From an uncultured virus (IMG/VR IMGVR_UViG_3300047445_000292) (Duplodnaviria; Heunggongvirae; Uroviricota; Caudoviricetes), in the IMG/VR virus record IMGVR_UViG_3300047445_000292: a stretch of DNA of 20,000 bases; one strand, 5' to 3'. Below the pieces are notes generated by a model. It did no database searches. It was not told where the DNA came from and saw nothing but the letters and a program-made list of their open reading frames with translations. Each line of letters starts with the position of its first letter. Positions within the stretch are counted from its first letter, which is position 1. The translations under genes were made by a program, and so were the position numbers. Positions 4,470 through 18,140 of the stretch are shown here, in pieces.

Positions 4470-4919
4470 ATGGCCAACGGCGCGATCTACTACGACGAAC
4501 TGCGTTTCGACACCCGCGACCCCGCGTTCACCCATGTGTATTGCTTCATCCGCGGTGAGGGGGATTGCCCGTTCAATATCCATGGCTGGCACCACAAGGC
4601 CTTCCCGAAAGAAGTCACCACCGAAGAAATTTTCGGCAAGATTTGGTCCGGGCACACAGACCCGTCGACGTGGGAGCGCGAAGCGCCGCAGGCGGTGGAA
4701 ACCCCACCGATTTACGCCCCGCATGATCGCGTACCCGTGCCGGTCGAGCAGTTGCAGAACTGGCACCAGGCCTTTGCCATGGTGGGGGACCCTCCCGCTG
4801 TGGAAATGGCCGAGCAGATCACTTCGCACCTGACCTCGGTGACGCAATGGGACAAGGTCTGCCCACACTGCCGGGCGCACGACATGATGCTGCAAGCGCA
4901 GCGGAACCCGCCACAATGA
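4470..4919 (+). CDS. Hypothetical protein with C-terminal CxxC
   Basis: 149 aa, AAGGAG RBS, CPHC near the C-terminus. Confidence 0.7.
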   Translation: MANGAIYYDELRFDTRDPAFTHVYCFIRGEGDCPFNIHGWHHKAFPKEVTTEEIFGKIWSGHTDPSTWEREAPQAVETPPIYAPHDRVPVPVEQLQNWHQAFAMVGDPPAVEMAEQITSHLTSVTQWDKVCPHCRAHDMMLQAQRNPPQ

Positions 4920-5377
4920 CAGCGGCGCCTGGGGAGAACTGGGCCAGCGAAATGCAGGCCCTGCAGGACCAGATCGAGCAGCTGGGTCTGGAGCTGGAGT
5001 GCGCCAGGCGCAACGAGAACAACGTGAACTACTGGTACGGTCAGGACGACGGCGTGCGGGGTGCGGCTCTGCGTTGGCATGAGGCGTTGACCTGCCCGAT
5101 CCCCAAGGCCGGCACCATGCAAGAGCCGCTGGAATCGCTGTATCGGCGAACCGAAGTGCTGCGCCAGGATCTGGCCTGCGCGATCAGCGACATCGCCCTG
5201 TTACGTGGCCAGAACGACGGCTACCTGCACCTGCTGCACGTCGTAATGGCGTCGATCGACGAGCACTGGGCGCCGCACGACCCCGTGTCGTCGAACGTGC
5301 GCGACGAACTGCTGGAGCGCCTTGGGCGATCCGCCAACGCGGCGCGGGAGGCGGTGGTTGCGGGGTTACGGCGATGA
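4916..5377 (+). CDS. Hypothetical coiled-coil protein
   Basis: ATGA overlap at 4916 and at 5374; heptad-like helices. Confidence 0.7.
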   Translation: MTAAPGENWASEMQALQDQIEQLGLELECARRNENNVNYWYGQDDGVRGAALRWHEALTCPIPKAGTMQEPLESLYRRTEVLRQDLACAISDIALLRGQNDGYLHLLHVVMASIDEHWAPHDPVSSNVRDELLERLGRSANAAREAVVAGLRR

Positions 5378-5601
5378 GCATGAACTACGCGATCGAGCAG
5401 CGCCTGCGGCTGATCGACTTCTTGCTGGAGCACTACGGCCACGTCGGCCGCCCGGAGCTGTGCGCGTTCTTCGGCATCAGTCTGCCGTGCGCGTCGAACG
5501 ACATTGCCGCGTACAACGAGGCCAACCCGGACAACGCAAAGTACGACTTCAAGAGCAAGCGGTGGGTGCGCAGCGCGACGTTCAAACCGCGCTATTCCTG
5601 A
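5374..5601 (+). CDS. Stand-alone winged-HTH resembling the N-terminal DNA-binding domain of CapW/BrxR WYL regulators
   Basis: EQRLRLIDFLL..YG.VGR.EL..FFGIS.P.AS.DI..Y....P.N..YD.KSKRWV....FKP.Y matches that domain; no WYL domain follows. Confidence 0.8.
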   Translation: MSMNYAIEQRLRLIDFLLEHYGHVGRPELCAFFGISLPCASNDIAAYNEANPDNAKYDFKSKRWVRSATFKPRYS

Positions 5602-5633
5602 CCGGCAAGACAACTATATAGAAGGAAGCGTCT

Positions 5634-5906
5634 GTGGAGACTGACACCGTCAAGGTGGGGCTGACCCCATGCGGTAGACCAAAGTTGACCTATGCCATGG
5701 AACAGCGAATGCGCTTCATCGACTTCGTGCTGTTCCACTTCGGCCACATCACCCGCAAACACCTGATCGAGTTCTTCGGTGTGACCTCGGCCACTGCCAC
5801 CCGCGATTTCGCCCTGTTTCATGAGCTGTACCCGGGCATGGCGCGGCTGAATCACGTCACCAAACTGTACGTTCCGACCAAGGAGTACAGCCGCATTTTC
5901 CCGTAG
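5634..5906 (+). CDS. Second stand-alone CapW/BrxR-like winged-HTH paralogue
   Basis: YAMEQRMRFIDFVLFHFGHITRKHLIEFFGVTSATATRDFALF aligns with the upstream ORF. Confidence 0.8.
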   Translation: METDTVKVGLTPCGRPKLTYAMEQRMRFIDFVLFHFGHITRKHLIEFFGVTSATATRDFALFHELYPGMARLNHVTKLYVPTKEYSRIFP

Positions 5907-5939: not shown

Positions 5940-6230
5940 ATGGCAACGCGCATCTGGAAATGGCCCCTGAAAATGACCGCCCTGCAAGACATTGACCTGC
6001 CGATCGGCGCCCAGTACCTGGACGTGCAGATCCAGGGTGGCGAGCCGCAGCTGTGGTGTCTGTGCAATGCCAACGCGGCGCTGGAACCGCGCCGGCTGAT
6101 GATCCACGGCACCGGCAACCCCATGCCCGACGACCCGGGCGCGTACCTGGCCACGTTCCAGACCGGCGCGTTCGTATGGCACCTGTTTGAAGTTCCACAC
6201 CCCACCATCGAGCAAAGGACGGACGTATGA
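5940..6230 (+). CDS. Conserved phage protein (DUF7352-like)
   Basis: IWKWPL...IDLP.GA..L.VQ.Q...QLW...IHGTG.P...YL.TFQ...FVWHLFE pattern; AAGGA RBS. Confidence 0.75.
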   Translation: MATRIWKWPLKMTALQDIDLPIGAQYLDVQIQGGEPQLWCLCNANAALEPRRLMIHGTGNPMPDDPGAYLATFQTGAFVWHLFEVPHPTIEQRTDV

Positions 6231-6886: not shown

Positions 6887-7128
6887 TGAGCGCGCCGATA
6901 CGGTGCGGGTCGGAGTTGCGCAAGCTGATCGAGTTCGCCAAGGAGCTGGGCTTTACCTGCGAAATCACCGGCAGCAACCAATTGAGCTTTCGCCGGCCGC
7001 ACACGCGGTCGGTGTGGGCTTCGTGCACCCCGAGCTGTCACCACGCCCGCAAGAACACTCGCCACGACCTGTTGCGGGCCGTGCGCGAGGCGGAAACACA
7101 AACAATACATCAAAGGAATGAGCAGTGA
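6886..7128 (+). CDS. HicA-like (dsRBD-fold) small protein
   Basis: ELRKLIEFAKELGF..EITGSNQLSF....SVW.S.TPS....KN.R.DL.RA resembles HicA-like mobile-element proteins; the usual His is replaced by Gln. Confidence 0.55.
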   Translation: MSAPIRCGSELRKLIEFAKELGFTCEITGSNQLSFRRPHTRSVWASCTPSCHHARKNTRHDLLRAVREAETQTIHQRNEQ

Positions 7129-7418
7129 GCGGGACCAAGGCAGCACCAGAAATCGAATACCTCGGGCAGTTCATGTTCGTCCAACGCAAGGCCCTGCGCC
7201 TGACGTTGGACGACGTGGCCAAGGGGGCCGGCACCTCGAAATCCTACCTGTGGGAGATCGAGCACGGGCAGGCGGCACCGTCGTTCATGCTGGTCGCCCG
7301 CTTGTGCCAGGTCTTGTGCCTGGACATCGGCGGGCTGGCCGCCGGGGCGTTGAAAGTGGCTGAGCTGTGTGGGGAGGTCGAGCAAGATCCGGGGCAGCTT
7401 CATCGCTCCGGGGCTTGA
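7125..7418 (+). CDS. XRE/Cro-family helix-turn-helix regulator
   Basis: RKALRLTLDDVAKGAGTSKSYLWEIEHGQAAPS is a canonical HTH_3 motif; GTGA overlap. Confidence 0.9.
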   Translation: MSGTKAAPEIEYLGQFMFVQRKALRLTLDDVAKGAGTSKSYLWEIEHGQAAPSFMLVARLCQVLCLDIGGLAAGALKVAELCGEVEQDPGQLHRSGA

Positions 7419-7530
7419 TTGACCCGACAACGAGCGAAGCGAGGCGTCAGGCTTTTAGGACCTCTGAAAACACCCCTATATCTAAGACTAAGAAGGGGAA
7501 TGGCTGTAGCCCTTTGTTTTCAAGGGGGTG

Positions 7531-7734
7531 CGATGTGAAATTCACACCGTTTCGATGTGAATTTGCGACTATTCTGGTAGAAAACACTATGCTTTTTCTA
7601 CCAGAACGGTAGAAAACCTACCACGCTTTACGAGTGTTTTGATAGAAAGTCTGAGCGAGATAGTAGAAAAATAAGGGTGTTTTCTACCGGTTCTGTAGAA
7701 ATGCAGGCTACTATTCACATCGAACCTGTAGAAA
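7531..7734. repeat. Iteron-like GTAGAAA(A) repeat cluster, candidate replication origin/operator
   Basis: Perfect 13 bp inverted repeat TTCTGGTAGAAAA (7572-7584) / TTTTCTACCAGAA (7594-7606); further copies at 7608, 7663, 7679 (reverse), 7695, 7728; CGATGTGAA direct repeat at 7531 and 7553; AT-rich; directly upstream of rep. Confidence 0.75.
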
Positions 7735-7772
7735 TTCTAATTCAGGCAGTAAAAACAAGGGGTTGTATCTTC

Positions 7773-8399
7773 GTGTCAGAAGAGAAGAGAGGTTACTACA
7801 CTTCACGCGCCGATGTGGTATCCGCGAGGGTCAACCCATGGGCCGGGGAGTTGGTACACACCATCAAGAAGGGCCGTAAAGTCACCGGCTTTTCCCGCAC
7901 CACCCGCCACTCGCTGGTCGACCACACCACCGGCGAGATTTCCGACGACATCGCCGTGCTCGGGGTGCAGAAGGTGGTCGACAAGGAAGAATTCATCAAG
8001 TTCTTCGGCGCCGGCATCATGGAAGTGTTCGAACTGACCAAACCGGCGAAAGACGTGTTCAAGGCAATCATGAACGTCTATCTGGAGCAGAAGAACAAGC
8101 CGGATCAGCTGTATTTCAACCACGAAATGGTGCGCCTGTACTTCGGCTTCGACAAGTCGCGCACCAGCTTCAACAACGGGATCAACGAACTGTGCGTGAA
8201 AGGCTTCATCGCCCCGGTCGAGGCCATGGACAGCCTGTATTGGGTCAACCCGAACCTGTTCTACAAGGGCGATCGCATCCGCATCGTGCATGAATACGTG
8301 CGCGCCGGGACCAAGGCGGCCAAGCAGGTGGAACTGGAGAACGCGAAGGCCAATCAAGGTGCTCTCGCGCTCGATGACCCCAACCGCGAAGACGAATAG
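7773..8399 (+). CDS. Plasmid-type replication/maintenance protein (RepL-like winged helix)
   Basis: DHTTGE motif, VDKEEFIKFF, NGINELCVKGFI and YWVNPNLFYKGDR; likely GTG start at 7773 with AAGGGG RBS. Confidence 0.75.
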   Translation: MSEEKRGYYTSRADVVSARVNPWAGELVHTIKKGRKVTGFSRTTRHSLVDHTTGEISDDIAVLGVQKVVDKEEFIKFFGAGIMEVFELTKPAKDVFKAIMNVYLEQKNKPDQLYFNHEMVRLYFGFDKSRTSFNNGINELCVKGFIAPVEAMDSLYWVNPNLFYKGDRIRIVHEYVRAGTKAAKQVELENAKANQGALALDDPNREDE

Positions 8400-16314: not shown

Positions 16315-16362
16315 GAAGGGTTCGACGTACATACCACGCATACCCTGTACTACGTGGTATGA

Positions 16363-16404
16363 CATGAACCATGAACTCACAATTCATGGTTCACAATTCA
16401 CAAA
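16363..16404. repeat. Heptamer array CATGAAC-CATGAAC-TCACAAT-TCATGGT-TCACAAT-TCACAAA
   Basis: Read directly; contains an 11 bp inverted repeat 16365-16375 / 16383-16393. Confidence 0.9.
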
Positions 16405-16667: not shown

Positions 16668-16702
16668 CATGAACCATGAAGTCACAATTCACAATTCACA
16701 AA
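16668..16702. repeat. Heptamer array CATGAAC-CATGAAG-TCACAAT-TCACAAT-TCACAAA
   Basis: Read directly. Confidence 0.9.
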
Positions 16703-16717
16703 CCCGGAGTAAGCCCC

Positions 16718-17682: not shown

Positions 17683-18111
17683 ATGATCAAACTCGACGAC
17701 CTCACCCACTGCTTCTACGTGCCCGGCGCCGGCAACATCATCGACACCGCGTTCAAGAATGAAGCCGGCGAATACGTCAGCCACATCCACCGTATGAACC
17801 TGATGCAGATGCGCGACGAACGCCCCGACGTGGTGTTGGGCGTGCTCGATGACTGGATTGAAAAGGAAGAACAGCGCCTGATCGGCACCCCCGAGGCAAT
17901 CACCAAGGAGGTGTGGTGGGAAGCGCTGGAATGCCTGCCGCCGGAGAGCTGGCAGAACAACGGCGGCGGCGAATCGTTCGTCATGAGCGAGTATTACAGC
18001 GGCCGGATCACCTCCATCTACGTGCGCCTGGGCGAGCGCTATTTCACCTGGCACGACGTGTGCTGCCTGCCGCACCTCGACCGGCTGGCGAAGGCCCGCA
18101 CGGCGCTGTGA
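17683..18111 (+). CDS. Hypothetical protein, DUF1419-like C-terminal region
   Basis: IT...WWEALECLPP..W....ESF.MSE...G.IT..Y...GERYF; AAGGA RBS. Confidence 0.7.
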   Translation: MIKLDDLTHCFYVPGAGNIIDTAFKNEAGEYVSHIHRMNLMQMRDERPDVVLGVLDDWIEKEEQRLIGTPEAITKEVWWEALECLPPESWQNNGGGESFVMSEYYSGRITSIYVRLGERYFTWHDVCCLPHLDRLAKARTAL

Positions 18112-18113
18112 AT

Positions 18114-18140
18114 TCATGGTTCACAATTCACAATTCACAG
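18114..18140. repeat. Heptamer array TCATGGT-TCACAAT-TCACAAT-TCACAG
   Basis: Read directly. Confidence 0.9.

Follow-up and report, generated by a model that had tools for sequence, protein, structure and literature searches.

Why would a phage carry the DNA-binding head of a bacterial defence regulator on its own, without the sensor that goes with it? The question is raised by two small, adjacent open reading frames (ORFs) in a 20,000-nt stretch of DNA from an uncultured virus of the Caudoviricetes (IMG/VR record IMGVR_UViG_3300047445_000292), a stretch called here the window. ORF-A (5374..5601, + strand, 75 aa) and ORF-B (5634..5906, + strand, 90 aa) each encode a stand-alone winged helix-turn-helix (wHTH) domain of the type found at the head of the BrxR/CapW repressors. 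CapW (7TB5 from Pseudomonas aeruginosa PA17, 7TB6 from Stenotrophomonas maltophilia, 9C5G from Rhizobium leguminosarum) is a wHTH-WYL-WCX repressor of the cyclic oligonucleotide-based anti-phage signalling system (CBASS), and BrxR (7QFZ from Escherichia fergusonii, 7T8K/7T8L from Acinetobacter) is a regulator of bacteriophage exclusion (BREX) and of defence islands. Their genes lie beside, and usually divergent from, the defence system that they repress, and the proteins bind a palindrome of about 19–27 bp overlapping the promoter. As BrxR/CapW regulators control many defence islands, what is at stake is how phages deal with this regulatory layer. The answer that we put forward, with a probability of about one in two, is that A and B are constitutive phage transcription factors working with a helical protein encoded just upstream.

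Two Complete Genes for BrxR/CapW-Type Heads

When A was compared with all PDB sequences (phmmer), the best matches were 7tb6 (S. maltophilia CapW, E 3e-8), 7tb5 (5.7e-8), and 7qfz (7.6e-7), followed by 7t8k and 9c5g; outside BrxR/CapW, only two unrelated chains appeared, with E-values of 0.23 and 1.2. B retrieved the same five chains, led by 7qfz (1.9e-6), with 7tb5 at 2e-5 and 7tb6 at 3.2e-5. A profile of the family gave five PDB matches at E ≤ 0.01, all of them BrxR/CapW (2.3e-16 to 9.4e-7, with CapW chains at 2.3e-16 and 2.8e-15). In every case, the match is confined to the first 80–90 residues of proteins of about 290–300 residues. The structural comparison, which covers A, B being assigned by sequence, agrees: the AlphaFold2 (AF2) model of A, computed from a 29-sequence alignment, has a predicted local distance difference test score (pLDDT) of 92.9 and shows three helices and a two-strand wing, and all of its Foldseek matches at ranks 1–13 are BrxR/CapW chains (TM-score on the query, TMq, 0.88–0.95; root-mean-square deviation, rmsd, 0.6–1.2 Å). 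The first of them is 7QFZ (TMq 0.95, rmsd 1.1 Å), the CapW chains score 0.88–0.92, and other winged helices reach a TMq of 0.65 at most.

Domain libraries say little about these proteins. Local Pfam searches yielded only weak HTH_28/HTH_DeoR matches below cut-off for A and B, and PHROGs, NCBIfam, and PADLOC offered no family for either. PF26109 is the precomputed label of all 27 short homologues.

The two genes are co-directional and lie inside a phage operon. A starts with ATG and B with GTG; the 32-nt spacer between them (5602..5633, + strand) holds GAAGGAAG, which reads as the ribosome-binding site of B. B also has an N-terminal tail (GLTPCGR..), and both the GTG start and the tail are kept in 9 of its 10 orthologues. 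The two products share 26 identities over 63 positions (41%, BLASTP E 3e-20), a relationship visible at the DNA level as a 94-nt direct repeat with 72% identity. The stop codon comes 0–1 residues past the head, which leaves no sequence for a WYL or WCX part, and a Pfam scan of the 55 window ORFs detected no WYL domain. The preliminary description, made from the letters of the window alone, had announced two adjacent paralogous ORFs, each with its own stop, a common motif, the recognition helices SLPCASND and TSATATRD, and a CapW/BrxR-like wHTH without its WYL sensor; the ORF calls and the comparisons above, including the Foldseek search against CapW and BrxR that it had proposed, confirm all of this. 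It had also called the following gene unrelated, as indeed it is: the ORF at 5940-6230 encodes a DUF7352 protein (E 2.4e-21) and is followed by a gene for a VWA-like protein.

The heads thus resemble CapW in fold and sequence, and differ from it in having neither the WYL sensor nor the WCX dimerisation domain; their genes are also phage-borne, with no defence operon adjoining. PADLOC, run on 51 window ORFs, returned no defence match except a generic HTH/capH-type match of the XRE gene at 7125-7418. The difference from BrxR is likewise that the phage proteins consist of the head alone. Phage markers in the window include a GH108 endolysin, a CsrA homologue, a DNA invertase, and several PHROG families. 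The window is syntenic with IMG/VR contigs, as a rule of 17–84 kb, with which it shares blocks 69–93% identical; megablast found no close relative among deposited phages.

Short versions of longer proteins readily suggest decay, and the preliminary description had itself raised the possibility of degraded remnants under no purifying selection. A remnant of a full-length gene can be ruled out. In pairwise Nei–Gojobori comparisons of the window with its relatives, the ratio of nonsynonymous to synonymous substitution rates (dN/dS) was 0.17–0.32 for A (7 pairs) and 0.15–0.28 for B (9 pairs), hence 0.15–0.32 in all 16 comparisons; the stop directly after the head recurs in 63 of 67 viral loci (see below), and no WYL remains in the window ORFs. 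Homologues found through a word index tell the same story, 12 of 12 for A and 15 of 15 for B being 69–91 aa long. A and B are complete, phage-borne, and under purifying selection. Relative to locus L007, B is nearly identical (dS 0.03) and the neighbouring A diverged (dS 0.40), a contrast that implies a recent recombination joint between them.

A Phage-Borne Family

Scanning IMG/VR with a pattern gave 67 loci. The ORF stops no more than 9 residues past the head in 63 of them and has a 40-residue tail in one; the other three are full length (286–301 aa). ORFs that appear longer on their upstream side mostly owe this to spurious arginine-rich extensions produced by the longest-ORF rule. Pattern matches in bacterial genomes were solo in seven of eight cases. 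We then have the reverse picture in 400 Gammaproteobacteria genomes drawn evenly (one further genome was left unscored): 47 matches were found in 45 genomes, 45 of them in open frames of 277–428 aa and only two solo, one of these being the query's own prophage. Because 63 of the 67 viral loci are solo, versus 45 of 47 gammaproteobacterial matches lying in frames of full-length size, the sensor-less form is almost purely phage-borne and the sensor-bearing form cellular. An exhaustive profile search, with 2057 cluster representatives at E ≤ 1e-3, has the solo forms on top and full-length proteins from about 75 bits downward.

A form almost confined to phages also suits a host-directed role in counter-defence, as put forward in the preliminary description. 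The heads would sit on the operators of host loci regulated by BrxR/CapW and, being impossible to release with single-stranded DNA, would keep CBASS, BREX, and other islands at their basal level while an infection lasts. We regard this explanation as possible but tentative.

The phylogeny bears on it. We computed a tree of 177 heads (76 columns, LG+G4, Shimodaira–Hasegawa-like approximate likelihood-ratio support, SH-aLRT, midpoint root), the rows being the best 150 matches of a solo-built profile, 27 word-index homologues, and the window's two ORFs. All 25 full-length proteins fall into one 69-row subtree (SH-aLRT 89), together with 35 of the 39 intermediate-length rows, which are probably fragments, and 9 short rows; of the remaining 108 rows, 4 are intermediates and the rest are solo forms, some of them extended at the N-terminus. 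A and B belong to different solo clades, with supports of 96 and 97. As far as this tree goes, the heads would be old phage lineages rather than recent captures of host regulators, and the full-length proteins could even derive from phage heads. Heads that sit in deep phage-only branches, and are not nested among host regulators, speak against the host-directed explanation.

Two-copy loci arose at least three times, in the window's kin (8 sources: 7 loci and the window), in L017, where the tandem copies are 64% identical, and in L032, where they are 42% identical and carry one helix of each type (see the next section). Other solo heads bear unrelated N-terminal extensions, namely Cys-rich ribbons (proteins P0029, P0044, P0054, and P0061) or an XRE-type helix-turn-helix (HTH) (P0047). 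In the full-text literature searched, we came across no account of phage-encoded BrxR/CapW heads devoid of WYL. Such a large and conserved family of heads, specific to phages, would represent either an ancestral phage transcription factor that stands behind the defence regulators or a transcription-level counter-defence of an undescribed kind.

Two Recognition Helices

In S. maltophilia CapW, mutations of R32, S42, Q45, and S47 abolish DNA binding (PMC9122588). We aligned the heads to the family model and read the equivalent positions. The arginine equivalent to R32 is present in all 177 heads, A and B included; the other three residues are S, C, and S in A, and T, T, and T in B. Two types of helix recur, each in both solo and full-length proteins: type 1, SxPQASxD, as in CapW, and type 2, xxAxATRD, as in the BrxR of 7QFZ. 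The complete R/S/Q/S pattern is found in 28 of 113 solo, 19 of 39 intermediate, and 10 of 25 full-length proteins.

The helix of A, SLPCASND, is a type-1 variant (ISLPCAS for the ISxPQAS of CapW) with C in place of the DNA-binding Q45, a variant seen in 10 solo proteins and in none of the 25 full-length ones. That of B, TSATATRD, is of type 2; it is identical in 10 of 10 orthologues, and TSATATRDF resembles the 7QFZ helix in the alignment. The base-reading SRQQ motif of Acinetobacter BrxR (R38; PMC9122589) is not kept, A having S-L-P-C and B T-S-A-T there. That the two recognition helices differ had been remarked in the preliminary description and holds true. Since A has a CapW-like helix and B a BrxR-like one, the two should read two different half-sites or operators.

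This sharing of both helix types between solo and full-length proteins, with the R/S/Q/S set occurring on both sides, favours host-directed silencing, under which a pair made of one head of each type would cover two classes of operators. The same explanation is less at ease with A itself, whose C replaces a residue that CapW needs for DNA binding and never does so in a full-length protein of our set. In its favour is Stenotrophomonas phage Sonora. The gene for CPT_Sonora_088 (gp088, 75 aa, annotated as a hypothetical protein) stands among successive small genes of early type; gp088 is again a head on its own, and the sole relative detected by tblastn in 50,697 deposited phage records (35% identity to B, E 2e-11). 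Unlike the pair in the window, gp088 is a single copy and has the full CapW-like R/S/Q/S set, and its phage is cultured, with a known host; it matches the CapW of P. aeruginosa and S. maltophilia at 4.9e-15 and 3.7e-13, respectively. Sonora and the published S. maltophilia CapW operator provide a cultured phage–host pair for such questions.

Selection for DNA contact is indicated by the arginine, which never varies, and by the conservation of the recognition helix. This speaks against another explanation, which we consider very improbable: interference at the protein level, in which a free head would bind the WYL domain of a host BrxR/CapW and lock or unlock the repressor. A docking surface is conceivable, as each WYL domain of CapW contacts mainly the wHTH of the opposite protomer (PMC9122588); most genomes that carry a solo head, however, lack such a partner (see below).

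A Predicted All-Helical Protein Encoded Directly Upstream

A is preceded by an ORF for a predicted all-helical protein (4916..5377, + strand, 153 aa from the ATG at 4916; the longest ORF, from 4847, would give 176 aa). This ORF has ATGA overlaps both with its predecessor (4916-4919) and with ORF-A (5374-5377), and A is translationally coupled to it. The upstream protein has homologues in 9 loci, and in these as in the window, 10 sources in all, its gene lies directly 5' of a head. In L057 and L059, that head is of B type and A is absent; in L008 (5476-6228, protein P0039), the upstream protein is fused in frame to an A homologue (250 or 215 aa). No Pfam, PHROG, NCBIfam, or PADLOC family was assigned to it, the protein atlas contained only unnamed viral clusters as matches, and its AF2 model, all helix, has a low confidence (pLDDT 52), too poor for a fold search.

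These links make the protein a candidate partner or scaffold of the heads. BrxR/CapW dimers are held together by their WYL and WCX parts (PMC9122601, PMC9122588), and a lone head thus needs another way to pair; we infer that the upstream helical protein supplies it. The same consideration is a difficulty for silencing of host operons, since in the full-length proteins it is the WCX/WYL dimer, missing from a lone head, that keeps two heads together on a palindrome of 25–27 bp (PMC9122601, PMC9122589).

Proposed Role: Constitutive Phage Transcription Factors

In our proposal, A and B would be small sequence-specific DNA-binding proteins, each consisting only of the wHTH head of BrxR/CapW repressors and, judging from its homologues, reading a DNA half-site with its third helix and its wing. 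Because neither a WYL sensor nor a WCX dimerisation domain is present, they would not respond to single-stranded DNA and would act constitutively, their effect being set only by their own level. Oligomerisation would come from elsewhere, most likely through the upstream helical protein. Their most likely job would be transcriptional control, by repression, of the phage's own promoters, in the setting of a long early or accessory operon extending over about 2.6–7.4 kb of the window.

In this they would work like the small HTH proteins that autoregulate accessory operons of phages, such as the Aca proteins of anti-CRISPR operons, which are also sensor-less small DNA-binding proteins encoded among small accessory genes. 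The Aca proteins differ in belonging to another fold family, and here neither an operator nor a promoter palindrome could be identified, and the operon contains no known anti-defence gene. If the heads are only phage-internal regulators, the gain is a useful annotation for a family labelled hypothetical.

Published work on CapW is relevant to what a phage could gain from a permanent repressor of its host's defences. CapW mutants altered in the WYL domain so that they repress constitutively protect against lambda as well as the wild type does (PMC9122588), and because CBASS protection persists under constitutive repression, a phage may have little to gain from tighter repression of a defence operon. 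A preprint on BREX leads the other way: BrxR derepression after restricted infection lifts BREX enough to overwhelm a phage inhibitor (10.1101/2025.11.13.688357), so blocking this derepression could pay. One may imagine a dedicated phage family of uninducible heads that, seated on the operators of WYL-regulated defence islands in the host, stops the damage-triggered boost of immunity, with one head per operator type and possibly the sensor-less CapH-like HTH protein of 7125-7418 as an addition; we consider this, too, possible but tentative.

Operators, Neighbours, and Resident Regulators

A set of results weighs against our proposal, and we gather them here. To begin with the tree, it rests on 76 columns, its choice of rows is biased towards solo forms, and its key branch is not strongly supported. 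Nor did the window yield an operator. Two motifs are over-represented in it, GTAGAAAA with 5 copies for 0.16 expected and AATTCACA with 9 copies for 0.33 expected. The copies of GTAGAAAA form iterons and palindromes at 7575-7690; in sister phages, the type of iteron switches together with the N-terminus of the 240-aa product of ORF 7677-8399, whereas the helix of B is invariant, and for this reason the iterons belong to that ORF and are ruled out as operators of the heads. For AATTCACA, no clustering was seen in relatives and there is no support for a role as operator of the heads. A search for short palindromes (arms of at least 10, spacer 0–10) gave 45 overlapping matches, or about 20 distinct sites, versus 6–17 in 10 shuffles, and none could be assigned to the heads. 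Overall, no operator of the heads was found within this 20-kb window of a genome of probably about 80 kb.

Gene context was no more generous. Outside the close kin of the window, the loci have no conserved neighbour (a gene is shared by 12 at most of the 77 sources, which are 76 loci and the window), so that no target can be read from the context. Among the flanking ORFs of the other loci, some of which are duplicates of one element, 30 of 121 have a Pfam family: three DNA methylases, four RNA ligases, three integrases, one resolvase, three MvaT/H-NS-like proteins, two Lar-like proteins below cut-off, a primase, and others. The neighbourhood of these loci is early or accessory. The methylases, RNA ligases, Lar-like, and MvaT/H-NS-like proteins look like counter-defence; together with the shared helix types and the Frateuria case below, they fit the silencing of host loci as well as our proposal, or better.

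This context also touches on a role outside transcription. Small winged-helix proteins serve replication, partition, recombination directionality, or packaging in phages, and A and B could be DNA-binding accessory factors that work with the upstream protein in one of these processes. An iteron-rich, low-GC region lies 1.7 kb downstream of the pair, and an integrase, resolvase, or primase adjoins some distant loci. We nevertheless find this unlikely: the iterons co-vary with the 240-aa ORF and not with the heads, no neighbour is conserved across the family, and all characterised homologues are transcription repressors.

Seven bacterial genomes carry a solo head; two of them have a resident full-length homologue, and five have none at E ≤ 1e-3 (one of the five being a 2.2-Mb metagenome-assembled genome, MAG). 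These five show that a resident target is not needed, which favours a phage-internal role and counts against silencing. The background of full-length homologues is about 44 in 400 genomes, a frequency with which 2 of 7 compares without statistical power. In the Dechloromonas genome, the solo head and the resident regulator are only 34% identical and their helices differ, again to the detriment of silencing, and no palindrome was found upstream of the resident regulator. In the Frateuria MAG, the prophage solo head and the resident 307-aa CapW-like regulator are 50% identical and both carry a ..PQASLDL helix. The gene of this resident regulator is immediately preceded by a perfect 8+1+8 palindrome (L083, 464-480) that ends at its start codon, a candidate auto-operator; the 8.2 kb of prophage examined contain neither this palindrome nor its half-site. 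This case favours a host-directed role, although it is a single one (n = 1).

The regions that hold the over-represented motifs deserve a description of their own. The region 7530-7740 is a low-GC intergenic hub that combines the GTAGAAAA iterons and palindromes with TGTGAA/TTCACA repeats. The product of ORF 7677-8399, whose N-terminus switches with the iterons, has no family; the pairing suggests either an origin and its initiator or an operator and its repressor. Just before it, at 7400-7530, the XRE gene is followed by about 130 nt that hardly vary among six phages whose aligned blocks elsewhere show 69–93% identity; a terminator-like hairpin with a T-run after it lies in this stretch. Heptad-like repeats (TTCACAA, CTCACAA, TTCATGG; AATTCACA) are found at 343-383, 16356-16402, 16668-16705, and 18107-18139, in each case across the start of a + strand ORF (380, 16371, 16676, and 18116, respectively); they may encode an N-terminal peptide common to small paralogues, or else be a DNA motif placed where genes begin.

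Other Features of the Window

The XRE-type HTH protein encoded at 7125-7418 (+ strand), in the same operon as A and B, matches the PADLOC capH model at 4e-8 and HTH_VI at 1.1e-8. At E ≤ 1e-3, it has a single match among PDB sequences, the 69-aa HTH protein 7t5u, which we take to be the N-terminal domain of CapH. No CapP/ImmA-type peptidase was found in the Pfam scan of the 55 window ORFs, and the protein may simply be a generic phage repressor.

Further upstream, a structured RNA (2160-2545, + strand) lies directly 5' of the phage csrA homologue. Its 2160-2412 part matches the full model of the Rfam PAGEV RNA (RF03037) at E 2.4e-14, and a search at the gathering threshold misses it because its 60.9 bits fall short of the gathering score of 61.1. 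Over 2230-2545, six phages support a consensus of 93 pairs, with 98.6% of cells paired and 15 pairs showing compensatory changes, versus 5.3 in shuffles (0 of 500 reach 15) and 0–2 in slid controls. The RNA contains many GGA motifs, which gives the idea of a Csr/Rsm-type sponge for the adjacent CsrA; ORF 2291-2512, which lies within it, has no family. The CsrA homologue itself (2606-2893, + strand; Pfam CsrA 7.9e-24) probably starts near 2699, as its domain begins at residue 32 of the ORF. A 20-bp palindrome with one mismatch (2652-2671) is found just upstream, and its core is partly conserved in relatives.

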